Shown piece by piece: positions 2,948-56,956 of a DNA stretch of 64,000 nt. Under the pieces are notes generated by a model. It did not search any database, had not been told where the DNA came from, and saw only the letters and a program-made list of their open reading frames with translations. The number at the start of each line of letters is the position of its first letter. Position 1 is the stretch's first letter. The DNA is from Candidatus Parcubacteria bacterium (GTDB lineage Bacteria; Patescibacteriota; Minisyncoccia; Phycocordibacterales; UBA2100). A program made the translations under genes and the position numbers. The stretch is taken from positions 12,430-76,429 of the forward strand of contig JBEEJY010000010.1 of assembly GCA_041168925.1 (NCBI GenBank), written 5' to 3'.

Positions 2948-3322
2948 TTAGCAGCGAAGTACCTGTTCGACCAGCGATTGGGTCGCAAGCACCTGCTTGC
3001 TCGCTTTGGTCAACAGGTGCTTCTGGAACAGAGTGTCGAGCTTGATCGCAGCAAGATCGAGCGTCCGGCCCTGTCCCGCGGCGCATACTCTTGCGCTCAC
3101 CCTGATGCTGCCATCATTCGAGCGGCAGACGGAAAAATCGCGCAGCAGCTTGCACTTCTGGACCTCATCTTCGAGAGCATCGATTTGGCCGTAGGTGATC
3201 GTCGCGCTGAATTCGGGCTGAACCCAGGCGCCGATCACGACACTGATGAGCTCCTTTCCCAGCCCATCTCTTGAGAACACCACGGTGGCAGTTGTCGGTA
3301 AGTTTCGATGACGCGGCATCAT
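2948..3322 (-). CDS. hypothetical protein (124 aa)
   Basis: Strong RBS GGAGGAAATGATG upstream of the start, GC3-rich codon usage matching neighbours, convergent with ychF. No recognisable domain. Confidence 0.5.
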   Translation of the reverse strand: MMPRHRNLPTTATVVFSRDGLGKELISVVIGAWVQPEFSATITYGQIDALEDEVQKCKLLRDFSVCRSNDGSIRVSARVCAAGQGRTLDLAAIKLDTLFQKHLLTKASKQVLATQSLVEQVLRC

Positions 3323-4431: not shown

Positions 4432-7400
4432 ATGCACGGCTACGACCACAAGAAGATAGAGACCAAATGGCAAAAAGCGTGGGCGAAAAAGGGCCTCTAT
4501 AAAACATCCGATAAAGTAAAAGGGAAGGACAACTTTTACCTGTTGGTCGAATTCCCGTATCCATCCGGCAATCTCCACGTCGGGCACTGGTACGCCTTTT
4601 CCGTGCCCGACATTCTCGCACGCATGATGCGAATGCAGGGTAGGAACGTGCTCTATCCGATCGGTTTCGATGCGTTCGGCCTTCCGGCGGAAAATGCCGC
4701 GATCAAAAACAGGGTGAATCCGCGAAAGTGGACGCTGGGCAACATCGAATTCATGAAAAAGCAGATACGTTCGATGGGAACCTCATTCGACTGGTCGCGA
4801 GAAATCCTCACCTGCGATCCGGCATATTACAAGTGGACGCAATGGCTCTTCCTTCAATTTTTCAAGAGAGGTCTGGCGTATCAGAAAGAGACTCCCGCCA
4901 ATTGGTGCCCGAAAGACAAGACGGTGCTCGCCAACGAACAAGTCGTGGATGGCAAGTGCGAGCGTTGCGGCACGCAGGTAATCCAGAAAGAAATGCCGCA
5001 GTGGAATCTCAAGATAACCGACTACGCCGATCGGCTCATCAATGATCTCGACGCGCTTGACTGGCCGGAGCAGATAAAAGAATCGCAGCGCAACTGGATC
5101 GGCCGTTCCGAAGGATACGAAATCGATTTTCCTCTTGTTTTCGACGATGGCAAAAAGTACAAGTATGTTCTCTTGCACGGCTATACGGGACACGCGTCGG
5201 ATGCGCGGTGGCAGTGGATACGGCGCGAATTGGAAGCGCTGGGGCACGAGGTCATCATTCCCGAACTCCCGAATACCGATGATCCGAGCGAGGAAGAACA
5301 GGTCGAAGTGGCTTTACACGCTACAGAGTACGATGAACGGACGGTTCTCTTTGGCCACAGCCTCGGCGCGACGGTCGCGATGAAGGTTGTGGAAAAGCTT
5401 ACAGCTCCGATATCACGCCTCGTGCTAGCCGGAGCCGTGGTCAATCCGCGATTCAAAGACAAGAAACGGCCGTTCGAGAAGAAGTTCAGTTGGAGATTCG
5501 ACCCCGAAGCAATAAAAAAGAACGCGAAAAGCATTACGGTACTCCACGACCCGCGGGATTACGCGATCACCGAGAAACAAAGACAACTCATTGAAAACAT
5601 GCTCAATCTGAAGGCACGGCTATGCAGCACGACCGAGCCGCACTTTACGGGCGACAGGGAGCCGGATCTCCTCATGTGGCTGCGTCCGACCATCCGTGTT
5701 TTCACCACTCGCCCCGACACGCTCTATGGCGGCACTTTTCTCGTTCTCGCGCCCGAACATCCTTGGATCAAAGCGGCCCTGCAAAATGACGGACATCGTA
5801 AGTCCGTCATTTCAAACGAGGCAGAGATTCAACGCTACGTCGAGAATGCAGCGAAAAAGACAGAGCGCGAACGACAGGAGAGCAAGGAAAAGACGGGAGT
5901 TGAGCTGATGGGTGTGAAAGCCATCAATCCAACGACCGGAGCCGAAATACCGCTGTGGGTGGCCGACTACGCTCTGATGGGATTCGGCACTGGTGCGTTA
6001 TTTGGCGATGCGCACGACGCCCGCGACGTCGCCTTTGCGAAAAAGTACGGCATTCCGTTGAGGGAAACAATAGAGCCTTTGTTCATTCAGGAAACAGGGC
6101 TAGACAAAATTCGATCAGATGAGCCATTTACGGAGCGCAATTCCATTCACGCGTTCGTTAAGCATTGGTCGGACGAAAAGTACATGGCGGTGCACTATGT
6201 GCCGAGTGATATCAACGAGTGTGTGTCTGGTGGGATCGAAGAAGGTGAAGATGCGGTAACGGCGGCACAACGTGAGATACGTGAAGAGACAGGTTACAGT
6301 AAAGCGCGCTTCGTCAGGAAGTTGGGCAATCGAGTTCATGCGAAGTATTACAGCGTTGAACGCAAGAAGAACATGTTCGTGCATTTTACCCCACTCCTAT
6401 TCCAACTTGAAGATGATACTCAAGAGGAGATATCGGCGAGTGAAAAGGCGCGCCATGAGGTAAGTTGGCTTTCGAAGGAAGAGGTAGGGCGATTCTTCAA
6501 CCGGGACGATATCCGTCTGGGCTGGAGTCGCGTCGAGAATGATATTCCGTATGAGGGAAAGGGGATACTGTTCGACTCTGGAGAGTTCAGCGGGCTCACG
6601 AGCGATGAGGCGATGCCGAAGATCGGCGAGAAATTCGGACGACTGGTCAAACACTATCGCCTGCGCGATTGGATAGTATCGCGCCAACGCTATTGGGGAG
6701 TGCCCATACCGATCATTCATTGCGCAACGTGCGGCCCTGTTGCCGTGCCCGACAAAGACCTGCCCGTCAAATTACCGGAAGTCAGAGATTATCTGCCGGA
6801 CGGGAAGGGGAAATCGCCGCTCGCGAAGGTAATCAAATTCGTTCAGGTAAAATGTCCGCGCTGCAAGAGTTCGGCGCAGCGAGAAACCGACACGCTTGAT
6901 ACGTTCGTGGACTCGTCGTGGTATTTCTTGCGCTACACAGATCCAAAGAATAAAAAGAAATTCGCCGATGCAAATAAGATGGATCATTGGATGCCGGTCG
7001 ATCTCTACTCCGGCGGCGCGGAGCATACGACCATGCACGTGCTCTATTCCCGTTTCTGGCAGAAGGCGATGTTCGACCTCGGGCTCGTGAAAGACAAAGA
7101 GCCGTACGTGCGGCGCATGAATCGCTCCATCATTCTCGGGCCGGACGGCCAAAAAATGAGCAAATCGCACGGCAATGTCATCGATCCCGACGAAGTGGTC
7201 GCGCGGCTCGGGGCGGACACGGTGCGCATGTATCTCGCCTTCATCGGTCCGTACAGTGAGGTCTCCAGCTTCCCGTGGAATCCCGACGGAGTGGTCGGCG
7301 TCCGTCGCTTTCTCGAGCGGGTGTGGAATGCCGGCCAGAAATTGGCGGTGCAAGAGAAGCGAGTGGATGCGCTGCGACACATATTGCACAAGACCGTGAA

Positions 7401-16929: not shown

Positions 16930-18072
16930 TCAGACGGGTTCGTGCCCGATCGCGATATCGAGCAAGACTTGCGCCAGCTTTCGCGCGGCTTCCGGCCGCG
17001 CGAAAGCGCGAGCGGCCTCGGCCATCGATGCGCGCATCGTCTGATCGCTCATGAGGCGGGTCACCTCGGCGACGAGCAGGTGCGGCGTCAGGTTGTGCTG
17101 TTCGATGACTATCGCCCCTCCCGCGCGCGCATAGGAAAATGCGTTCTCCGTTTGATCATGCGAGACGTCTTCCGGAATCGGAACGAGGATCGCCGGTATG
17201 CCCCAGCTCGCAATCTCGAAAATGGTACCCGATCCCGCCCGCGCGATAATGAGATCCGTGATCCCCGCGGCCATGCGAAGCGCGAGCGTGTTCAAAAGAC
17301 CGAATATCTTGTAACGAAGCGCGAAACGGGAATCCTTGAGGATCACGCCCGAGAGCCTGCCCACCTCTTCGACGTTGGCATTCCCCGCTTGATGGACGAC
17401 GTTGTATTCCTGCAAGAGCGACGGGAGAGCGTCCAGTACAACTTCATTGATGGCGCGCGCGCCTTGGGAGCCGCCCATGATAAAGATCGTCGGAACCCCG
17501 GTATCTAGTTTGAGGAATTCATGGCCGCCCTCGGGGCTTCTCGTTACGATCTCTTTACGAATCGGATGGCCGATACTCGCTATTTTGCCCCGCACTTTCT
17601 CGGGGAATTTCTTGGCGGCGTCGGCATGCGCCAACCCGATCCATACGGAGAATTTCGACGACCAGAGGGAGACCCTACCGGGCGTCGCGTCGGCATCGTA
17701 GATCACCACCGGGATTTTTAGGATGCGCGCCGCCGATAGAGTCGGAAACGCCGCATAGCCTCCAGTTGAAAAGATGACGTCGGGATACAGTCGAAAAAGA
17801 AGAAAAATTGAGCGAATGATGCCCGCGACGCTTAAGAATAGCGTCACCACGTTCAACAAACTCGGGTAGCGACGCAATTTTCCGGCGGGAGAACTGACAT
17901 ACTGGATGTCATGCTCAAGCAGCGCCTCGGCGTCGAAAGCCGGCGGACCGACGTAAAGCAGCTCTGGCTCGATAAGCGTCCGCTCTTTGCAAATATCCTC
18001 GATCGCTTCCGCGACCGCGATCAGCGGGTAAAAATGTCCCCCGGTACCGCCTCCAACAAGCACAATGCGCAT
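16930..18072 (-). CDS. murG: UDP-N-acetylglucosamine--N-acetylmuramyl-(pentapeptide) pyrophosphoryl-undecaprenol N-acetylglucosamine transferase
   Basis: MRIVLVGGGTGGHFYP N-terminus and GT-B fold (GGSQGA) are typical MurG. Confidence 0.9.
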   Translation of the reverse strand: MRIVLVGGGTGGHFYPLIAVAEAIEDICKERTLIEPELLYVGPPAFDAEALLEHDIQYVSSPAGKLRRYPSLLNVVTLFLSVAGIIRSIFLLFRLYPDVIFSTGGYAAFPTLSAARILKIPVVIYDADATPGRVSLWSSKFSVWIGLAHADAAKKFPEKVRGKIASIGHPIRKEIVTRSPEGGHEFLKLDTGVPTIFIMGGSQGARAINEVVLDALPSLLQEYNVVHQAGNANVEEVGRLSGVILKDSRFALRYKIFGLLNTLALRMAAGITDLIIARAGSGTIFEIASWGIPAILVPIPEDVSHDQTENAFSYARAGGAIVIEQHNLTPHLLVAEVTRLMSDQTMRASMAEAARAFARPEAARKLAQVLLDIAIGHEPV

Positions 18073-18358
18073 GGTAGCGCTCATTTTATCACGCTACAGG
18101 GAGCGCGTGGAATCTCTATACGCATGTCCGTCATTTCTTTTGCTTCTCGCAGAAGATCAACGAAGCATCGATAATCCTCGTCTACGATCGAAGATCGTGA
18201 ACCTGCCAACGGCACGATTGAGGACGTGGTACACATGACCGCCAACATCAACACGAGCGACACGAACCATGCAAATACTATACCACGCGGTCGATCAATT
18301 AATTGTGCCCGTCCCCGTTACTCGTTACTTTGTCCCCGTTACTTTACAATAGAGCATT

Positions 18359-20017
18359 ATGGCGCACTGGCGCATCACAGCGGTTGTCATCCTCTCTTTC
18401 CTCGCAAGCGCCATTTTTGCTTTTGCCTCCGCTCCCGCCGCTCCGCCGCTGCCGCTCACCGCGACATGCAACGCCGCCGGCACGCAGGCGACGCTCAATT
18501 GGACACCGGTTGCGGGTGCCGATCATTACTGGCTGCGGGTCAATGACTATCTCACTCCTGATTGCTCGTCGCCGACCGTGACGGGCCCCAACGGCTACTG
18601 CACGAGCGGAGTCGATTACGTCAACGATGTCGCCCAGCCCGGCGTGACGGTGAACGTGCCGACCGATCGCAATCTCGTCTGGTGGGTGCACTCGGTTTCG
18701 AGTACAGGTGAATACAGCGAGCAGACGACGTTTGATTTTACATGCTATCCGCCGCAACCTGCTGCGCCTCCCGCCCTATCGATCAGCGCCTCACCTGCTA
18801 CGATCGGGGCGGGACAGTCCTCGACAATCTCGTGGAGCGCGAGCAACTATTACAGCTGTACCATCGGCGTCTTTCCGGCGCCGAATTACACGATCTTCAA
18901 TTATTCGCCACCGTGGAGCGGCAGCAATACCACGGGTCCGCTCTCAACGAATAAGACATACACTCTGTCGTGTTTGGACACCAACAACCAATACAGCTAT
19001 TCGTCCTCGACCGTCGTCACCGTTATTCCCGCTCCGACATGCGCGGTGACAATCAGCCCCACATCGTATAATGCCCCCGCTTCCGCGACTCTCTCGTGGT
19101 CTTCATCAAACGCAGCAAGCTTCTACATCAACTCCGTAGGATACGTCGGCGCCTCCGGTTCGACGACGGTCTCACCCTCGGCTTCCACCGACTACAGCGG
19201 CACGGTGACAGGTCCCGGCGGTTCCGCGACGTGCCCCGCGACACTCACTGTCCATCCCTCCTGCACCTTCAATGGTCAAACCGTCACGCACGGATCATCC
19301 GTTACCGCATACCAAGCCGCGACTGTCCCGTACGGCTCCTCCTGTGCCTCGCAAGTTCGCACCTGCACCGAAGGAACACTCTCAGAGTCGTATCAGTATC
19401 CCTCCTGCGCTGTCAGCCCTCCTGCAAATTGCACGCTCGACGGCGCGACCGTTCTCCACGGCCAATCCCGAACGTTCTATTCAAAACAAACCGCGCCCGT
19501 GGGCCAGCTTTGCTCGGCACTGGGCCAGTCACGCACCTGTACCGACGGATCGCTCTCCGGCTCTCCCTCATACCAGTACGCGTCCTGCTCCTGCACGCCC
19601 TCCGCCGCCTACTCCTGCTCCGCCAGCAACATTATACAAACGAGCACGGACGCTTCCTGCACCGTCACCGCGAACCCGAGTTATGCGACCTGCGTCTCGC
19701 CTCAGTTTTGCTCACCAGGTTCATCGGCGTGCCTCGACGCGGCGATCACAGTCTCGCAGCATCTTGCCGTCCGTCCACAATTAGTACAACAGGGGTCCAG
19801 CGCCAAAGTCTATTGGCAGGTTTCGAACGCATCCCACTGCTCGGTCACCGGCTCAAACGGCGATGCATGGAATTTTGCCGCGTCAGGTGAGGCAGGTGTA
19901 GCAACAAGTCCGATCAATCAGCAGACGACGTATACGCTCGCGTGCACTGCCTTTAACGGCTCGCACATCAACGAATCTCAAGTCGTCAATGTCGTGCCCG
20001 CGTTTCAGGAAATCTGA
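18359..20017 (+). CDS. secreted S/T/C-rich modular surface protein (FN3-like N-domain, repeated S.S.SWS.SN and C...G.TV.HG.S.T.Y...C repeats)
   Basis: Signal peptide. Internal repeats SCTFNGQTVTHGSS...RTCTEGTLS / NCTLDGATVLHGQS...RTCTDGSLS and 3x TISWSASN-type repeats. Encoded on the opposite strand inside the otherwise conserved ftsW-murG interval. Confidence 0.55.
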   Translation: MAHWRITAVVILSFLASAIFAFASAPAAPPLPLTATCNAAGTQATLNWTPVAGADHYWLRVNDYLTPDCSSPTVTGPNGYCTSGVDYVNDVAQPGVTVNVPTDRNLVWWVHSVSSTGEYSEQTTFDFTCYPPQPAAPPALSISASPATIGAGQSSTISWSASNYYSCTIGVFPAPNYTIFNYSPPWSGSNTTGPLSTNKTYTLSCLDTNNQYSYSSSTVVTVIPAPTCAVTISPTSYNAPASATLSWSSSNAASFYINSVGYVGASGSTTVSPSASTDYSGTVTGPGGSATCPATLTVHPSCTFNGQTVTHGSSVTAYQAATVPYGSSCASQVRTCTEGTLSESYQYPSCAVSPPANCTLDGATVLHGQSRTFYSKQTAPVGQLCSALGQSRTCTDGSLSGSPSYQYASCSCTPSAAYSCSASNIIQTSTDASCTVTANPSYATCVSPQFCSPGSSACLDAAITVSQHLAVRPQLVQQGSSAKVYWQVSNASHCSVTGSNGDAWNFAASGEAGVATSPINQQTTYTLACTAFNGSHINESQVVNVVPAFQEI

Positions 20018-20104
20018 TCGCAAAATAGTAGACGTTGCCGTACTAACACACTTCGAGGTGAAGCACGATGTTCAATCACCGGCGCGAGCAATTACCCAAG
20101 GGGG

Positions 20105-20152
20105 TAATGGCGGGGTAATGAGGACAGGCACCATTTCAGGACTTCGGCCATC
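20105..20152 (+). repeat. about 48-bp direct repeat, copy A, flanking the PIN toxin/antitoxin cassette
   Basis: gggtaatgaggacaggcaccatttcaggacttcggccatcctggattc is about 85% identical to copy B at 20868..20915. Confidence 0.6.
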
Positions 20153-20200
20153 CTGGATTCCCGAGCGCCGACTCAAGTTCATGCCGCTTCACCATTCTTT

Positions 20201-20647
20201 CTATAGATCCATTTCGGCAAGCCGAATCAAATCTCCCGGCTTTACGATTTTGAGACCTTTTTGATTTGCTATCCGTATGATCTTCTCGCTGAAAAATTCA
20301 TTATCGAGCGTGAGTAAATATTCGGCATTCCGCAGTGCCGACGCAAGGATCGGCGCGTCCTTTTTTGAGATATGTCGAAACAGTTTCGCAACGTCTCGCT
20401 TCGAGGGATTAGGCAATACTCGAATACCCGCAAATCCAATGAGGAGAAATAGAGTAGCAGAGAGGTGCGCGAACCGCTGTAATTTGCCGTCCAACACATC
20501 TCTTACTTCTTCGAGTACGTATTCGTTGATGAGGAGGACAAAACCTGAGTGTTTTTCCCGCAGCGCGTATGCGCTCCCGCCATCGGCGGAAAGCAACGCC
20601 GCAATAAGTACACTTGAGTCGACGAAGACACGAGGCCTATTTTCCAT
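20201..20647 (-). CDS. vapC: PIN-domain toxin (VapC-like)
   Basis: VFVDSSVLIAAL start and conserved acidic residues of the PIN fold. Start overlaps the end of a small upstream ORF (antitoxin-like). Confidence 0.8.
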   Translation of the reverse strand: MENRPRVFVDSSVLIAALLSADGGSAYALREKHSGFVLLINEYVLEEVRDVLDGKLQRFAHLSATLFLLIGFAGIRVLPNPSKRDVAKLFRHISKKDAPILASALRNAEYLLTLDNEFFSEKIIRIANQKGLKIVKPGDLIRLAEMDL

Positions 20648-20813
20648 AGCGCGACTTGAATGTCTTCGCGCGCGCCCTTTTCATCGCCGGTCGGATTATT
20701 TTCCAGTTTCGTTCGTCAATCGAAAAATCAGGCCGCTTGATGACCGACCGTTTAAGCAGTTTGATTTCCGCCTCGATTTTGCCGATGCGTTCCTGCACAT
20801 TCGCTTTGTTCAT
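20637..20813 (-). CDS. putative antitoxin (58 aa), not in the supplied ORF track
   Basis: ATG at about 20813 (revcomp of catatacggc): MNKANVQERIGKIEAEIKLLKRSVIKRPDFSIDERNWKIIRPAMKRARAKTFKSRYGK. Its stop overlaps the vapC start by about 11 nt, the classic antitoxin-toxin arrangement. Confidence 0.45.
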   Translation of the reverse strand: MNKANVQERIGKIEAEIKLLKRSVIKRPDFSIDERNWKIIRPAMKRARAKTFKSRYGK

Positions 20814-20867
20814 ATACGGCAGTATAGCAACATCCTCGATGAAAACAATATGGCCCGGGAGAAAAAT

Positions 20868-20915
20868 AGGGTAACGGAGACAGGCACCATTTCAGGGCTT
20901 CGATCGTCCCGGATT
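20868..20915 (+). repeat. about 48-bp direct repeat, copy B, flanking the PIN toxin/antitoxin cassette
   Basis: gggtaacggagacaggcaccatttcagggcttcgatcgtcccggattc. See copy A. Confidence 0.6.
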
Positions 20916-20978
20916 CAGCAACCCGAAAGTTTCTTTAACTCGAAGTATTGTATCGCGTTGGCGAGGGTTATCAGCGCG

Positions 20979-22076
20979 TTATCTATGTCGGCTGCGCGAT
21001 ACATTAAGAAGGATGCCGGCGCTTGCGAGCGAGACGAGCATCGCCGAGCCGCCTTGGGATACGAAAGTCAGCGGAATACCCGTGAGAGGTGCCAAACCGA
21101 GCATGGAGGAGATGTTGATGAATGCCTCCGAGACAAGGTAGGTCGAGATGCCGACCGCAAGGAGGCCTCCGAACGCATCGTGTGTCCGCGCCGCGACGAC
21201 GAAGCCCCGAAGCGCGAGGAAGAGAAAGAGCCCGACGATCCCGACCGAACCGACGAAACCGAGCTCCTCGGATGCGACCGCGAAAATCGAATCTCCCATC
21301 GGCTCCGGCAGATAGGTGAATTTTTGCACGCTCTGTCCGAATCCCCTTCCGGTAAGGCCGCCGGAGCCGATCGCGATGAGCGATTGACGTATCTGATAGC
21401 CTTCCGCCAGCCGTCCTTCCGACGGATAGAAAAAAGTCATGACTCGATCTCGCACGTACGGTCGCTCGAAGGCGAGCGCGCCGAGCGCAAGCAAGGCGAT
21501 TATGATGATGAGCGCGATGTCGCGCCAGCGCGCGCCGGCCGAGAAAAAGATCGCTGCGATACTCGCGCATATGACGCCGAGCGTCCCCATGTCTGGTTGC
21601 AGCAAAAGGATGAGTCCCGGCAGTAAGAGGAGCGCAAGAAAACCGCAAGCACCCCAAAGGATGCTCGCCGCGCGCTCGCGTATCGTCGCGAAATAGGCGG
21701 CAGCCATGATGATAGTCGCGAGTTTGAGCAGCTCCGATGGTTGAAAAGACATGCCGGCGAGGATGAGCCAGCGCCTTCCGCCGCCGTGCGAGGCGCCGAG
21801 ATGCGGTATAAAAACTGCCGCAGTCGCAAGGAGGGCAAGCCCGAAAAAGTACGGCGCTATCGGCCGCCACCGGCGGTAGTCGATAAGCGCGCCGCATACC
21901 AGCAAAAATGACCCCGCGCCGATGCCGAGAACGACGTGCCCGAACGCGACGGAAGCGATGCTTACTCCCCCTCGGGCGAGGATCCCGAACGCCGCGGAGG
22001 CGAAGATCAGCCCGCCGCCGATGACGAGGATCGCGATCAGGAGCACCAACGTCTTGTCCACTCCGGCGCGTCGCAT
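20979..22076 (-). CDS. ftsW: cell division/peptidoglycan glycosyltransferase FtsW (SEDS family)
   Basis: 10-TM SEDS protein (ASEELGFVGS.. region), positioned between mraY and murG. Confidence 0.85.
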   Translation of the reverse strand: MRRAGVDKTLVLLIAILVIGGGLIFASAAFGILARGGVSIASVAFGHVVLGIGAGSFLLVCGALIDYRRWRPIAPYFFGLALLATAAVFIPHLGASHGGGRRWLILAGMSFQPSELLKLATIIMAAAYFATIRERAASILWGACGFLALLLLPGLILLLQPDMGTLGVICASIAAIFFSAGARWRDIALIIIIALLALGALAFERPYVRDRVMTFFYPSEGRLAEGYQIRQSLIAIGSGGLTGRGFGQSVQKFTYLPEPMGDSIFAVASEELGFVGSVGIVGLFLFLALRGFVVAARTHDAFGGLLAVGISTYLVSEAFINISSMLGLAPLTGIPLTFVSQGGSAMLVSLASAGILLNVSRSRHR

Positions 22077-27768: not shown

Positions 27769-28089
27769 CTACAATTTGAATACTTTGCGCAATATCAGAT
27801 CGACTCGGGCACATACGGCTTTTTCGGCCATGCCTAGCTCACCGAGCACTATCAGCTTTTGCAGTGTCGCGACCTTGTCCACCTTTATCACGGAATCGAC
27901 TTTGAGACCGTTCGCTTTCGTCGCACGAATTGGGACATCGAATGGCCCTCTCTTTGTGCTGATGGACGACACGAACGCGACGATGCAATCCTCTCCCCTC
28001 GAGACATACAACACGAGAGCGGGCCGTACTTTTTGCCCTGACAGGTCGGTAAACGGGAACGGCACAAGGACAAGCCGCCCTTTACCCAT
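27769..28089 (-). CDS. MazF/PemK-family toxin (mRNA interferase)
   Basis: RLVLVPFPFTDLSGQKVRPALVL is the PemK/MazF signature. Overlaps the upstream antitoxin by about 8 nt. Confidence 0.8.
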   Translation of the reverse strand: MGKGRLVLVPFPFTDLSGQKVRPALVLYVSRGEDCIVAFVSSISTKRGPFDVPIRATKANGLKVDSVIKVDKVATLQKLIVLGELGMAEKAVCARVDLILRKVFKL

Positions 28090-28333
28090 AGCGCTTCTTC
28101 AAGTCCGAAACGGAATACAGTTCAGGCTCTCGAGAGAGAAAATCGAACGAACGTGAATACGCGTTGACGTTGGTGATGTCGTTCAGTGAATCGTTGTAAC
28201 TCTGCGGGAAGCCGATGAGCACTGCATCGATATCGCGACGTCTTCCTATCCCAAAGACTTCGCCGCGGTATCGCGCGCGGTTCACGATCTCTTTGATGTA
28301 TTTCCGAGCATTGGTGGTTGAAAGTACTTTCAT
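28082..28333 (-). CDS. Phd/YefM-type antitoxin
   Basis: MKVLSTTNARKYIKEIVNRA...GEVFGIGRRRDIDAVLI matches the Phd/YefM family. The track ORF starts at an upstream TTG; the ATG at about 28333 is preferred. Confidence 0.6.
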   Translation of the reverse strand: MKVLSTTNARKYIKEIVNRARYRGEVFGIGRRRDIDAVLIGFPQSYNDSLNDITNVNAYSRSFDFLSREPELYSVSDLKKRYG

Positions 28334-28367
28334 GTACACAGTGTACAAACCCGGCTTATGGTGTCAA
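28334..28367 (-). promoter_or_regulatory. promoter TTGACA-N16-TACACT-N6-ATG with a 13-bp perfect palindrome GTACACAGTGTAC overlapping the -10 and the start (autoregulatory operator candidate; leaderless)
   Basis: Seen on the minus strand immediately upstream of the Phd/YefM ATG; the -35 overlaps the hisK-like gene stop. Confidence 0.5.
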
Positions 28368-29182
28368 GTTGCGGGAAGCTCGACGATGAATTTCGCGCCC
28401 TTGCCTTGCCCATCGGACTCCGCACGGATCGTGCCGTTGTGATTTTCCACCACCTGCTTCGCGATAAATAGCCCGTACCCGGTCGAATGAACGTTGACCT
28501 TGATCGAATCCTTGCCGTGCCCGCCTTCGGTAAAAAGGCGTGCCATGTCTTCTTCGGTAATACCGACTCCTGTGTCCTCCACGCGAAAAACGATAGTCTT
28601 TTCTCTTCGCGACAGTTCGACTTTTATCGAGCCGCTCGGCGTATACTTAATGGCATTGTCTATCAGATTGCGGAGGACATGCTCGCGTATTTTTTCCGCA
28701 TCGCCTTCCAGCTGGTAGTCTCCATCTTCTATATTCACGTCGAAGCCGAGCCGTTTATCATAAGCAGCAGGCCGCAGCTCGTTGATTTCATTCAAAAGCG
28801 CCGCCTTGAGGTCGAATCGCGCTTTTTTGAACGTCACCGTCCCCTTCTTCAAATTCGACGCGTCCAGGATGTCCATTACCGTCGCCACGCCTTTGCGCAT
28901 CTCCGCGAGCGCCTCGACCGCGAGCCGCTTCACGCCGTCGGGGATCGCGCCGACGTCTCCTTCCGCAATTTCGGAGAACGCCGCCTCACCTTTCGTCAGG
29001 TAACCTTTGATCTCGTGGCTGATGAAGTGCAGCAGATTTTCCTGCTGCGCGTTCGCAATCTCGAGCTCTTGTTTGAGTCGGGCGAGTTCGAGCGAGTGCT
29101 TGTAGACTATCTCGTTGGCGGCCTTCAGCTCCGCCTCATAATCCTCGTGCGTCTTATCGGCTTGCCCGCCGGCATCGGCCAT
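28364..29182 (-). CDS. cytoplasmic sensor histidine kinase (HisKA + HATPase_c, no TM or sensor domain)
   Basis: H-box FISHEIKGYL, N-box NLIDNAIKYT, G-boxes DTGVGI and GYGLFIAK. No cognate response regulator in the window. Confidence 0.8.
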   Translation of the reverse strand: MADAGGQADKTHEDYEAELKAANEIVYKHSLELARLKQELEIANAQQENLLHFISHEIKGYLTKGEAAFSEIAEGDVGAIPDGVKRLAVEALAEMRKGVATVMDILDASNLKKGTVTFKKARFDLKAALLNEINELRPAAYDKRLGFDVNIEDGDYQLEGDAEKIREHVLRNLIDNAIKYTPSGSIKVELSRREKTIVFRVEDTGVGITEEDMARLFTEGGHGKDSIKVNVHSTGYGLFIAKQVVENHNGTIRAESDGQGKGAKFIVELPAT

Positions 29183-29191
29183 ACGGGATAT

Positions 29192-29443
29192 TTATGCTTT
29201 TAGAGCAATGCCGGCTTTCTGCGCGATCTGCTTGATCCACCGTTCGTGTCTGCTAATCTGCCCACTTATCGCAGCATACCCCAACAGCAGTTTGTCAACG
29301 GTACTGGCGAGTTTATCGAACCCTAGCATGAGGTCATGAATTGACTTCTTGATCTCGACAAGTTCTTCTCGAACTATTTTTCTGACACCTTCCTTCGTCG
29401 GAAAGAGGTGCATCAACTTATCGATGTCTTTATTCGTCAGCAT
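29192..29443 (-). CDS. hypothetical small protein (83 aa), immediately upstream of the histidine kinase
   Basis: ORF preceded by GGTATACTGGCGGC-ATG (the same promoter-like block as the RelE antitoxin). No recognisable domain. Confidence 0.4.
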   Translation of the reverse strand: MLTNKDIDKLMHLFPTKEGVRKIVREELVEIKKSIHDLMLGFDKLASTVDKLLLGYAAISGQISRHERWIKQIAQKAGIALKA

Positions 29444-29586
29444 GCCGCCAGTATACCATTTCCCTATACCGCGCGCAGGCTTGAAGGAATCTCGGCGGGA
29501 GAAAGACCCGCGAGAAACGGTGCCGCCGCCTCCCTGCAGACCTCGTGCGAAGCTCGGCCGAACAGCCGCTCATACTGCGCGACGCA
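29441..29586. repeat. about 145-bp direct repeat, copy 1 (49 bp identical, then about 75% identical); contains a 48-aa ORF whose C-terminal 38 aa mimic the C-terminus of the 30124..31281 membrane protein
   Basis: Copy 2 at 30101..30246. In the shared coding frame the divergent part has about 15 synonymous versus 5 conservative non-synonymous differences. Confidence 0.7.
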
Positions 29587-29591
29587 GCGTA

Positions 29592-29879
29592 CTAGTGATC
29601 TTCTGACCATGGCCCTCGCCGTTCATCGCGGATGTGCAGTATCTGAACTTCCGTACGGTCAACCTGATAGTAGACGTGGTAAGGATACGGGGCGATATGA
29701 AGTTCGTGCACTCCTTTTTCTTCCGTTTGAGGCGCTACTAGAGGAAATTCCGAAAGCAACGCGATGCGGTGTTCGATGGTTTTTTTCACTCCACGAGCCG
29801 CCTGCGGCGCAGGCTGATCTATGTAACGATAGATCGCCTCAAGATCACGCCGCGCCCGCGGCGTGTATCGCACTCTCAT
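29592..29879 (-). CDS. RelE/ParE-family toxin
   Basis: ...YHVYYQVDRTEVQILHIRDERRGP matches the RelE/ParE fold signature. 4-nt overlap with the upstream antitoxin. Confidence 0.8.
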   Translation of the reverse strand: MRVRYTPRARRDLEAIYRYIDQPAPQAARGVKKTIEHRIALLSEFPLVAPQTEEKGVHELHIAPYPYHVYYQVDRTEVQILHIRDERRGPWSEDH

Positions 29880-30103
29880 ACTCCATGGCGTTTGAAGAAA
29901 GCATTCATGCTTTTATCACTTACAAATTGACCGCGCCTCGCTTGCGCCAATCCCTCGCGTATTGCTGCACGAGTCTCGGCGTCGAGAGGTATCGGGGCTT
30001 TTTGCCTCGATGCTATCGAAAAGAGTATCGCCGCTGCCTCGTTTTGGTCGTCCGCTGATAATCTCTTAGCCCTAGCGATTGCCCGCTCTAATAGCTTGGT
30101 CAT
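29876..30103 (-). CDS. antitoxin of the RelE/ParE module (ParD/addiction-module-component-like, 75 aa)
   Basis: Small alpha-helical protein (MTKLLERAIARAKRLSADDQNEAAAILFSI...) whose stop overlaps the toxin start. Confidence 0.6.
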   Translation of the reverse strand: MTKLLERAIARAKRLSADDQNEAAAILFSIASRQKAPIPLDAETRAAIREGLAQARRGQFVSDKSMNAFFKRHGV

Positions 30104-30246
30104 GCCGCCAGTATACCATTTCCCTATACCGCGCGCAGGCTTGAAGGAACTTCATCAGGAGAAAGGCTTGCGATGAGAGGTGCCGCGGCTTCTCTGCACA
30201 CCTCATGCGAGGCTCGGCCGAAGAGCCGCTCGTATTGCGCAACGAG
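30101..30246. repeat. about 145-bp direct repeat, copy 2 (covers the last about 40 codons and stop of the 30124..31281 gene plus the antitoxin promoter and start)
   Basis: See copy 1. Confidence 0.7.
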
Positions 30247-31281
30247 CTTGTCGAGAGCCGCCTTCGGGTCATCTGCTTGTATGACCGCAGCTTTCTGTTG
30301 CATGTTGATCGACATACCAGGCACTTTTCCTGCTTCGCTCCACGCCAGAGGGCCGATGACGAGAGATTGCTCAGTGATTATTTTAGATGCGAGTTGGTTA
30401 AAAATAGCCGAAGCCACGCTAAGAACGCCGGAAGTCTTCACTTCAGGGTAAGAGGTTTTTATTGCATTGAACGTGATCGAGAGCTGGACGAGGCTCGCCG
30501 CCATGAAGACGTACGCGAGCATGTAGAAGGTATCTGTAATGCCACCAACGACGAACGTGCCCTGATTGGCCTGATAGAGGAAGGTGAAGTCGGAAATGTA
30601 TTGCATAACGAGAGCCACGATGAATCCCATCATCGGAAAACGCATGATGCCTCCGAGGGTGCGCCAGGTCAGCAATAGCGCGAGGATGGCTGCGGAGATG
30701 TAGAGCGCATCGCCGAGCGGATATCCGAGATCAAGAAATATCTTAAGCGGCTGCGACCAATCGAATTGGTACCCGCGCAAGAATACGAAGAACGAGAGCA
30801 AGAGCATGAAGAGCGGCACCACCAAGCCCTGCGTAATGTTCTCCAGAGAGCGCAGTGCGTTGCGGGCGCCGCCAGCTTTCGCCAAAAGCAGCGCCCCGTA
30901 GACGTAGAGCGGGATGGTCGAGAAAAATCCGAGGTCGGCTATCGAAGGATAGGGTAGCTCGCCACCGGTAATAGTGTAGTAACTCGATATGCATTGTCCG
31001 AAGAGTTCGCCGCACAATCCGAGTGCAAAGGCAATGCTGGCGCGACCGATGACACTATTCCACCCGCCCCACAAGCGGCTATAGAAAAGTCCGCACACAA
31101 CACCAACAAGTGCAAGCATCTGGTAGGAAGCGCCCCATATCTCGATGTCAAGGTCGAGATTAGGGAAGTTCGCGGAGAAGAAAAGGAGTACGAGCCGCCA
31201 CGCAACGACTACGGCGAAGAGACCAACGAGAAGAAGGCCTGCCGTGCTCTTCAGAAATTGCCCTACGGTCGAGTCGAACAT
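30124..31281 (-). CDS. polytopic membrane protein of unknown function (385 aa, about 8-9 TM)
   Basis: Many hydrophobic helices. The C-terminal soluble tail (...VAQYERLFGRASHEVCREAAAPLIASLSPDEVPSSLRAV) is the sequence duplicated in the repeat. Confidence 0.6.
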   Translation of the reverse strand: MFDSTVGQFLKSTAGLLLVGLFAVVVAWRLVLLFFSANFPNLDLDIEIWGASYQMLALVGVVCGLFYSRLWGGWNSVIGRASIAFALGLCGELFGQCISSYYTITGGELPYPSIADLGFFSTIPLYVYGALLLAKAGGARNALRSLENITQGLVVPLFMLLLSFFVFLRGYQFDWSQPLKIFLDLGYPLGDALYISAAILALLLTWRTLGGIMRFPMMGFIVALVMQYISDFTFLYQANQGTFVVGGITDTFYMLAYVFMAASLVQLSITFNAIKTSYPEVKTSGVLSVASAIFNQLASKIITEQSLVIGPLAWSEAGKVPGMSINMQQKAAVIQADDPKAALDKLVAQYERLFGRASHEVCREAAAPLIASLSPDEVPSSLRAV

Positions 31282-51249: not shown

Positions 51250-51313
51250 ACCTCTTCAGATTCTTCCGAGAGATTTTTTTAGGATGCCGGCTATGCACAG
51301 AGTTCGCTCCGGC

Positions 51314-51357
51314 GAGGTACACTAAATGTATGCTATAGCATATATTTAGTGTACCTC
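51314..51357. repeat. 44-bp AT-rich near-perfect palindrome GAGGTACACTAAATGTATGCTATAGCATATATTTAGTGTACCTC (TACACT-N8-GCTATAGC-N8-AGTGTA core)
   Basis: Lies between the convergent M16 peptidase and ung genes. Shares the core architecture with two elements flanking the PaaX-like gene. Confidence 0.6.
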
Positions 51358-56230: not shown

Positions 56231-56266
56231 TCTAACATAATCGCATGCGTATGCGTGAATTCGATG

Positions 56267-56302
56267 TATACTATATCTTTGCTATAGCATAGTTTTAGTA
56301 TA
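56267..56302. repeat. 36-bp AT-rich palindromic element TATACT-N8-GCTATAGC-N8-AGTATA overlapping the start codon of the PaaX-like gene (divergent promoter region)
   Basis: Part of an about 45-bp direct repeat with the element at 56888..56923. Confidence 0.6.
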
Positions 56303-56871
56303 TGGGAGAAATTGAACGGAGGGGAAAATTAAGGAGGCGAAGGAGGAACATTAAGAATGCCCTGCTGACGGCGATTCAACTTGCGGCAGTTGTCGGTGTC
56401 GCCGTCGCTGCGCCGAATCTGCCGCAAGCCCTTTATAAGACAGGTCTACTGAAGATACGCGGGGATGGCGCGGTTATAAGTCGCTCACGAAGAAACTTGT
56501 TGAGGCGACGTCTACTAAAAGAAGAAAAGGGATTTCTCGTATTGACACGCGCTGGGCAAAGAGAACTGCTTCGGATTGAGCTCGGTGAACGGCGATTGAA
56601 ATCTTTTCGATGGGATGGACGATGGCGTGTACTTATCTTTGATATCCCAGAATACAGAAAGAAAGACCGAGAGAAATTGCGTCGCACGCTCCGGAGCGTC
56701 GGATTCGAGCATTTACAGGACAGCGTCTGGATCTATCCTTATGACTGCGAAGATTTTGTGGCTCTTTTGAAGGCAGATTTCAAAATTGGGAAGGACATGC
56801 TGTATATGATTGTGGAGGAACTCGAGGGAGATTCGACGCTCCGGAAGCAATTCAACCTTCGAAACCGCTAG
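56302..56871 (+). CDS. PaaX-like transcriptional regulator (wHTH + PaaX_C/Cas2-like C-terminal domain)
   Basis: C-terminal WDGRWRVLIFDIPEYRKKDREKLRRTLRSVGFEHLQDSVWIYP matches the PaaX C-domain pattern; the N-terminal half is helix-rich. Flanked on both sides by the palindromic element. Confidence 0.5.
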   Translation: MGEIERRGKLRRRRRNIKNALLTAIQLAAVVGVAVAAPNLPQALYKTGLLKIRGDGAVISRSRRNLLRRRLLKEEKGFLVLTRAGQRELLRIELGERRLKSFRWDGRWRVLIFDIPEYRKKDREKLRRTLRSVGFEHLQDSVWIYPYDCEDFVALLKADFKIGKDMLYMIVEELEGDSTLRKQFNLRNR

Positions 56872-56887
56872 CAGTATCGATTCCGAT

Positions 56888-56923
56888 GTATACTGATTTC
56901 ATGCTATAGCATGGAGTTAGTAT
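56888..56923. repeat. 36-bp AT-rich palindromic element TATACT-N8-GCTATAGC-N8-AGTATA downstream of the PaaX-like gene (between convergent genes)
   Basis: Same architecture as the elements at 56267..56302 and 51314..51357. Confidence 0.6.
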
Positions 56924-56956
56924 ACTGGGCGAGTCGGAACCGATGCCGTGAGATGA

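Follow-up and report, generated by a model that had tools for sequence, protein, structure and literature searches.

A toxin-antitoxin (TA) cassette is located between the genes ftsW and murG in a 64-kb stretch of the Candidatus Parcubacteria contig JBEEJY010000010.1 (hereafter, the window). It consists of a gene for a VapC-like PIN-domain toxin and a gene for a 58-aa partner, and it is enclosed by two 48-nt direct repeats, R1 and R2. On balance, and with modest confidence, we favor the reading that this cassette of ~710 nt was acquired by an additive insertion that did not depend on a recombinase, and that R1 and R2 are duplicated local sequence from downstream of ftsW. This reading leans on other TA cassettes, in the window and in other genomes, that are bracketed by repeats derived from neighboring coding sequence.

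Direct repeats R1 and R2 delimit the cassette

R1 and R2 were recovered by a repeat search as 48-nt direct repeats that are identical at 40 of 48 positions (83%) and lie 756 nt apart, start to start (coordinates of the principal features are listed in Table 1). They share an exact 18-nt core, GACAGGCACCATTTCAGG; with up to three mismatches allowed, this core occurs only twice in the 64-kb window, as compared to an expectation of 0.02. When the intergenic regions holding R1 and R2 were compared by gapped local alignment a score of 32 was obtained, whereas shuffled sequences scored 8.5 on average (standard deviation 1.36, maximum 15). The likeness of the two repeats is beyond chance, and it ends at their 48-nt limits with no reliable extension beyond them. 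Both the repeats and the gene pair are unchanged, with identical repeats, across four independent assemblies, and the structure is therefore not an assembly artifact. The unique segment between R1 and R2 holds only the two TA genes. Only short gaps separate the genes from the repeats (40 nt from the PIN stop codon to R1, 55 nt from R2 to the antitoxin ATG), which bears out the claim of a preliminary description of this DNA that the repeats bracket exactly this pair. The same description had correctly recognized repeats of 48 nt, although it placed the first copy 8 nt and the second copy 1 nt away from the positions found here and gave their identity as ~85%.

All counts of R within the genome refer to the window. 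No third copy was found there, even with relaxed scoring. The exact core returned 27, 17 and 1 matches from metagenome, genome and viral collections, respectively, all of them single-copy, at chance level and in unrelated flanks whose identity to those of R is that expected by chance. No R-like sequence was found at the seven loci in other genomes that carry homologous PIN cassettes. Because R is unique in the window and absent from the three public collections and from the homologous cassettes, it appears to derive from the locus and not to have been carried by the element. The same results bear on a dispersed intergenic repeat family, resembling repetitive extragenic palindromic (REP) sequences or miniature inverted-repeat transposable elements (MITEs), two members of which would flank the genes by chance. 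A genome search that covered 64 kb leaves space for such a family, yet the window holds just two copies, the three collections contain no related sequence, and R has neither terminal inverted repeats nor palindromic structure, so that we regard this explanation as extremely improbable.

R could also be a functional cis element, such as a terminator or another 3'-untranslated-region element, an operator of the antitoxin gene, or a small RNA that follows both ftsW and the PIN gene. Each copy indeed lies 3' of a minus-strand gene, R2 at 62 nt from ftsW and R1 at 40 nt from the PIN gene, and a double change from G:C to A:T leaves a possible pairing of 3-5 bp intact. However, neither strand of R folds better than its shuffled counterparts (z between -0.56 and +0.61), no terminator-like site is present at R, and R has no Rfam match at gathering thresholds or at E ≤ 1. 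In addition, R2 is positioned upstream of the -35 region instead of over the promoter, and the absence of R from the homologous cassettes indicates that it is not the operator of this TA family. A cis-acting role is therefore very unlikely. R1 and R2 mark the boundaries of the cassette.

Repeats at other TA cassettes derive from neighboring coding sequence

Among the short-range direct repeats of the window, the two strongest each bracket a TA pair. Besides R1 and R2, they comprise 144-nt repeats surrounding an unrelated ParDE pair; these are 85% identical overall and share an identical final 49 nt. The upstream copy includes the 3' end of a gene encoding a 385-aa protein, and the downstream copy retains the frame and stop codon of that gene while differing from it by 14 synonymous changes at third positions and only 5 replacements, all conservative. 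Several of the variant residues in the downstream copy match the corresponding positions in orthologs of the 385-aa gene, the closest of which (66% identity, L070) is not syntenic. The divergence of the ParDE repeats thus appears to follow the pattern of two functional orthologs and not that of a dead copy decaying in place.

Similar brackets are found at three of the seven homologous PIN loci in other genomes, and thus at four of eight PIN loci when the window is included. At locus L061, the opposite side of the cassette from a convergent recombinase-family gene carries a relic of that gene's 3' end; it is 52 nt long, and 11 of its 13 mismatches fall at third codon positions. At L059, the PIN stop codon is directly followed by 92 nt that are a relic of the upstream gene (420 aa), and third positions account for 13 of the 20 mismatches; here the duplication brackets a methyltransferase gene together with the TA pair. 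L056 contains consecutive PemK, MNT/HEPN and PIN cassettes, each followed by a unit of 60-75 nt that reads as the 3' end of a coding sequence (...AEPNPAGCTIPPGGL and stop) and whose conserved part differs only synonymously. A fifth locus, L057, carries piled-up relics of the rpsG 3' end: the TA pair lies between rpsG and fusA, and the stretch from rpsG to the cassette contains three additional rpsG 3'-end relics, one of them ending in AHFAW and a stop codon.

When the ParDE, L061 and L059 repeats are pooled, 41 of 55 mismatches occur at third codon positions (P = 5e-10 as compared to an expectation of 1/3, and P = 8e-6 as compared to 0.45, which is our estimate for one copy decaying neutrally while the other remains under selection). 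As a result of this third-position bias, the copies look like orthologous sequence from different lineages. Divergence of this in-frame, ortholog type is seen at the ParDE, L061, L059 and L056 flanks, whereas R1 and R2 are noncoding. Because the parallel repeats are local target copies, often of a neighbor's 3' end, and diverge as orthologs do, they argue for additive recombination and not for att sites borne by an element.

Site-specific recombination would instead make R1 and R2 the attL and attR sites of a miniature cassette, or of a decayed larger island that retains just the addictive TA pair, mobilized in the manner of an integron, IMEX or island by a tyrosine or serine recombinase encoded elsewhere. 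Classic att sites have an exact core within partially similar sequence, as is the case here (18 nt in R, 49 nt in the ParDE repeats), the three L056 cassettes are each trailed by a common unit in the manner of an integron array, and the L061 cassette abuts a gene of the Phage_integrase family. Nevertheless, the repeat differs from locus to locus and is copied from neighboring genes, such that a different attP would be needed each time. Within the window, tblastn with an XerC-like query revealed no recombinase, and there are no tRNA or tmRNA genes that could provide a target. Inspection of R revealed no attC-type RYYYAAC/GTTRRRY core pair, R forms no stable hairpin, and both the cassette and the repeat are absent from viral contigs. 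Integron cassettes and tRNA-targeting islands can be ruled out because their defining features were tested and are missing, and site-specific recombination in general we judge to be distinctly unlikely. The preliminary description had proposed that the repeats are att-type scars or cassette boundaries. The latter assignment is retained, but the former is not, as R does not travel with the cassette, has no hairpin or attC core, and is accompanied by no recombinase that the XerC-like query could recover in the window. Two further candidate identities of R were rejected: a tRNA T-arm, for which inspection showed stem polarity and loop to be unfit, and a dif/Xer site, for which R lacks dyad symmetry.

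The boundary of the cassette is also visible between two of the homologous loci. Assembly L063 (1-188) and L061 (2153-2340) encode an identical PIN protein and have the same right flank, but their left flanks are unrelated, with divergence starting ~47 nt 5' of the antitoxin ATG. This difference is a polymorphism at the cassette boundary.

Several features of the homologous PIN loci stand apart from the repeat brackets. The TA pairs of L057 (3442-3814) and L065 (1742-3892) interrupt conserved ribosomal or translation gene neighborhoods, the L065 pair being located between tuf, which is followed by a 144-aa gene, and rpsJ, which is preceded by an 88-aa gene. L057 also contains a 44-nt direct repeat (2468-2511 and 2973-3016; 82% identity) upstream of rpsL and of rpsG, which may represent a leader or regulatory element common to both genes. 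Directly 5' of the three-cassette array in L056 is an IS630-like element (12-1125) with helix-turn-helix (HTH) and DDE_3 open reading frames (ORFs) and 27-nt terminal inverted repeats, which may have cut off the anchor gene of the array.

A model of additive insertion

In the model that we favor, the incoming DNA would have originated from a related lineage and carried a conserved flank together with the cassette. Two routes of entry are conceivable. Homologous pairing within the flank could be combined with illegitimate joining of the distal end (homology-facilitated illegitimate recombination, HFIR), or a circular molecule could undergo a single crossover in the best-conserved stretch that it shares with the recipient. 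By either route, the cassette would end up between two copies of the flank, one of donor type and one of resident type. After insertion, the addictive pair would resist deletion. Based on what is known of the family, the PIN RNase toxin would be held in check by the upstream, translationally coupled 58-aa antitoxin, and an extended -10 promoter ending 7 nt 5' of the ATG probably drives both genes. As R1 and R2 are noncoding, the codon-phase test is inapplicable to them and the model is extended by analogy: the 48-nt repeats may have arisen in the same way as the coding-derived ones, and the assignment of their copies to donor and recipient would follow by the same analogy.

Several observations weigh against additive insertion of this kind. 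The mismatches between the noncoding R1 and R2 show no codon periodicity, and their 18-nt identical core is short for a RecA-dependent crossover. With the exception of the closest relative, the related genomes are too diverged for their intergenic sequence to be aligned with the R spacer, a sliding-window nearest-neighbor scan for a breakpoint in FtsW gave no call, as its C-terminus is too conserved, and the exclusion of further R copies rests on 64 kb of genome. A site-specific core or gene conversion would also account for the exact identity of the final 49 nt in the ParDE repeats. Finally, flanking repeats are absent from the PemK pair in the window, and flanking duplications are absent from three of the seven other PIN loci (L054, L065 and L066).

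The repeats could also have been generated by the recipient itself. In such a self target duplication, a long staggered copy of the resident 48 nt would have been produced at insertion and then drifted in place by 17%. The architecture agrees with the published description of these events (repeats longer than 30 bp and unique to the locus, no mobility gene and a low-GC insert), and the phase-free mismatches of R1 and R2 are compatible with drift in situ. By contrast, the coding-derived parallels show open frames and a concentration of changes at third positions that the decay of a dead copy does not predict. The published repeats are moreover nearly identical (for example, 44/46 and 47/47; PMC2853133), whereas those described here are 71-88% identical. 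A drift of 17% also implies that the insertion is old, yet the relative with 77% FtsW identity has a different toxin gene at this site. We consider self duplication unlikely, if worth keeping in view.

The PIN toxin and its 58-aa partner

The toxin matches the PIN family PF01850 with 31.2 bits (cut-off 23.6), and its acidic tetrad (D10, E47, D97 and D115) is invariant among 20 homologs. With an intact tetrad and a score above the PIN threshold, its earlier designation as a VapC-like PIN toxin holds. The protein falls under the curated thresholds of narrower models, far below the NCBI VapC equivalog cut-off (NF047959, 15.6 bits versus 80) and just below that of TIGR00305 (27.6 versus 29.15). 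Its relatives are absent from viral contigs, and the PADLOC scan gave no match.

The small ORF upstream of the toxin gene was also called on the source contig by the Joint Genome Institute (JGI) gene caller. An exhaustive profile-free search yielded 75 cluster-representative homologs, mostly of 56-60 aa, and an ORF of 52-57 aa is located directly 5' of the PIN gene, overlapping it by 8 nt, at all seven of the other loci. The ORF is a real gene because it has these representative homologs and because a homolog precedes the PIN gene at each of the other loci. The preliminary description gave its coordinates and its 11-nt overlap with the toxin start correctly, and the gene proves to be a conserved partner. 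Within the aligned family, W37 and Y56 are invariant, a PDFxIDExNW motif is conserved and the C-terminus is basic. No family match was found in Pfam, NCBIfam or PADLOC, and a profile search against sequences in the PDB returned coiled-coil matches only. AlphaFold2 models the protein as a two-helix hairpin (predicted local distance difference test score, pLDDT, 89), for which Foldseek found no match in the PDB. VapB, Phd and ribbon-helix-helix (RHH) antitoxins had been named as possible relatives, but the 58-aa protein is unlike all of them by every test run. The partner defines an unannotated family of candidate antitoxins.

The pair shares several features with VapBC modules: a PIN toxin with an acidic tetrad and a small, overlapping upstream partner arranged with it in an operon. 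It differs from them not only in the toxin scores given above, but also in a partner that lacks the known VapB DNA-binding folds (RHH, AbrB, Phd/YefM and HTH). The pair would thus be expected to work like a VapBC module, with predicted toxicity and neutralization, but with a partner that is not a known VapB type. The TA segment has a GC content of 0.48-0.50, as compared to 0.58-0.63 in the ftsW and murG flanks, and the pair accordingly appears foreign in composition.

The putative extended -10 element TGCTATACT was read by eye, and a promoter consensus scan did not report it. Its placement suggests a leaderless or near-leaderless operon transcript. Extended -10-like elements with the sequence TGnTATACT or GATAAAAT precede murG, an 83-aa ORF and the ParD-like and antitoxin genes, ending 6-10 nt 5' of the respective ATG (at 20821-20829, about 29450-29458, about 30110-30118 and, for murG, near 18085-18095). 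Similar elements are present upstream of murG and TA genes in relatives, and their recurrence suggests that leaderless or near-leaderless transcripts may be widespread.

The ftsW-murG spacer

FtsW of the window is closest to proteins from Candidatus Kaiserbacteria and Parcubacteria, and relatives retain the gene order scpA, scpB, the gene for a penicillin-binding protein (PBP), mraY, ftsW, spacer, murG, gltX and an M23 peptidase gene. An insertion had been suspected in the interval 18085-20978, and comparison between relatives supports variability there, as the content of the ftsW-murG spacer differs. Specifically, the gap is empty and 196 nt long in L050 (71% FtsW identity); it holds a PemK-family toxin gene in the closest relative (555 nt; 77% FtsW identity) and an unrelated 218-aa gene in L052, a third relative (809 nt). 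The cassette is absent from this site in the relatives, and the spacers of those other than the closest do not align with R. In view of these gap lengths, the pairing of ftsW and murG in this clade is not the normally tight one that had been assumed.

The presence of the opposite-strand gene reported from the same interval was confirmed, and its description there as adhesin-like is best taken as tentative. The 552-aa protein that it encodes has a hydrophobic N-terminal segment and Cys-rich repeated modules, and it has no match in Pfam, NCBIfam or PADLOC. No flanking repeats were detected around this gene or around the 2.9-kb interval as a whole, and no relics of ftsW or murG were found inside the spacer.

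A different repeat is present in the spacer of L050, where 34 nt that contain a hairpin and begin at the ftsW stop codon (7099-7132) recur as a direct repeat 53 nt later (7152-7185) with 33 of 34 positions identical. This repeat could be a remnant of a previous insertion at this hotspot that was later lost.

Table 1. Positions of the cassette, its repeats and the comparator features within the window.
Feature	Coordinates	Strand	Remarks
PIN-domain toxin, VapC-like, 148 aa	20201..20647	-	PF01850 match; acidic tetrad
Candidate antitoxin, 58 aa	20637..20813	-	Overlaps toxin gene by 11 nt; predicted two-helix hairpin, undescribed family
Extended -10 element TGCTATACT, putative	20821..20829	-	Read by eye; ends 7 nt before antitoxin ATG
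R1	20113..20160	none	40 nt 3' of PIN stop codon; 83% identical to R2
R2	20869..20916	none	Copy nearer ftsW; 62 nt 3' of ftsW stop, 55 nt 5' of antitoxin ATG
ftsW	20979..22076	-	Conserved gene upstream of cassette; proposed homology anchor
murG	16930..18084	-	Conserved gene at other side of variable spacer
Gene for 552-aa Cys-rich repeat protein	18359..20017	+	No family match; separate spacer occupant; host-like GC; no bracketing repeats
ParDE genes	29592..30103	-	ParE 29592-29879; 75-aa ParD-like partner 29876-30103
Upstream 144-nt ParDE repeat	30101..30244	none	Last 40 codons of 385-aa gene (30124-31281) and promoter through antitoxin ATG
Downstream 144-nt ParDE repeat	29441..29584	none	In-frame orthologous 3'-end relic; finishes at ATG of next gene

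Relation to known systems

Insertion with long target duplication was reportedly described for restriction-modification (R-M) gene complexes by Nobusato et al. in 2000, and the architecture described here most closely resembles this class. In the study of Furuta, Abe and Kobayashi (2010; PMC2853133), R-M insertions lie between direct repeats of more than 30 bp that are unique to their locus and frequently reach into the 3' end of a neighboring gene; the inserts lack a mobility gene and deviate in GC content, and most cases come from naturally competent species. The criteria of that study are repeats of more than 30 bp, an insert of less than 20 kb without mobility genes, a repeat that is not multi-copy, and an empty site in a related genome whose single copy can be aligned with both repeats. 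With respect to the first two of these features, the cassette has repeats of 48 nt and a segment of ~710 nt that contains no mobility gene, and within the 64 kb and the collections its repeat is not multi-copy. As in the R-M cases, an addiction module of deviant GC is positioned between conserved genes and flanked by unique repeats derived from the target. Differences are also evident, as the cargo is a type II TA pair and the host belongs to the Patescibacteria (candidate phyla radiation, CPR), and the repeats are 71-88% identical instead of nearly so. Moreover, the coding-derived cases show synonymous-type divergence, which implies two lineages of origin, as opposed to self-duplication by the recipient in the R-M cases. 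The R-M cases are defined by an empty target site, whereas the cassette is known from its occupied site alone.

A second point of comparison is provided by arrays of type VI secretion effector-immunity genes and by orphan arrays of Rhs and contact-dependent inhibition (CDI) genes, for which Kirchberger et al. (2017; PMC5361080) proposed sequential displacement of the HFIR type. There, a conserved upstream gene serves as the anchor beside which each new module enters, older material that includes orphaned 3' ends is pushed downstream, and no integrase is involved. The stacked relics of L056 and L057 are similar to those arrays, but the cargo here consists of TA pairs, and the anchors are housekeeping genes, namely ftsW, rpsG, a recombinase gene and the 385-aa gene. 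In both instances, the mechanism was deduced from sequence only.

In integron arrays, the small cassettes closest to the promoter are frequently TA pairs, and a repeated unit of ~50-140 nt follows each of them. The array of three cassettes in L056 is similar to such arrays and to clusters of attC sites lacking integron-integrases (CALIN). It differs from them in that there are no attC core sites or hairpin, in that the unit is the 3' end of a gene and changes with the locus, and in that no integron integrase is seen.

Implications for TA cassettes in CPR bacteria

A TA module and its horizontal insertion are ordinary in themselves; it is the recurrence of a diverged, target-derived bracket around TA cassettes that merits systematic follow-up. 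The event is of a known kind in a new setting, which is defined by the TA cargo, the CPR host and the ortholog-like divergence of the repeats. To our knowledge, the entry of TA modules into conserved operons without a visible mobile element is poorly documented. The diverged bracket provides a concrete signature that can be scanned for, as it is present at four of eight PIN loci and at the unrelated ParDE pair, and it extends the idea of long target duplication from R-M to TA systems and to CPR bacteria. The pattern suggests that the repeat copies come from donor and recipient; were this general, they would trace gene flow between uncultivated lineages, and would explain how addiction modules come to interrupt conserved clusters such as dcw and str/S10.

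The small genomes of CPR bacteria contain few classical mobile elements. A broader proposal, which we advance tentatively and consider rather doubtful at present, is that CPR TA cassettes spread mainly by recombinase-independent additive recombination of DNA from related lineages, anchored in housekeeping genes (such as ftsW, rpsG and tuf-rpsJ), and that each event leaves a diverged, ortholog-derived copy of either the 3' end of the anchor or the spacer downstream of it. If true, such 'xenologous long duplications' would constitute a readable record of donors, and they could supply the direct repeats for later excision of a circle and its re-insertion.

Other TA pairs and repeats in the window

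The ParDE pair is part of a small islet (27769-30103) with the 385-aa gene on one side and a tRNA synthetase gene on the other. The islet also contains the 83-aa ORF with a 272-aa HATPase_c gene, as well as a Phd-like/PemK pair. Flanking repeats are absent from the 83-aa/HATPase pair, and ParDE is the only pair in the islet that has them.

The third family of short-range repeats in the window is a 46-nt palindromic motif (GTATACT...TGCTATAGCA...TAGTATA) with three copies (51308-51353, 56257-56302 and 56879-56924), two of which lie on either side of a gene (56302-56871) for a 189-aa protein that has a PaaX_M (Cas2-like) domain. The motif resembles an operator or promoter element of this PaaX-like regulator and not a cassette boundary.

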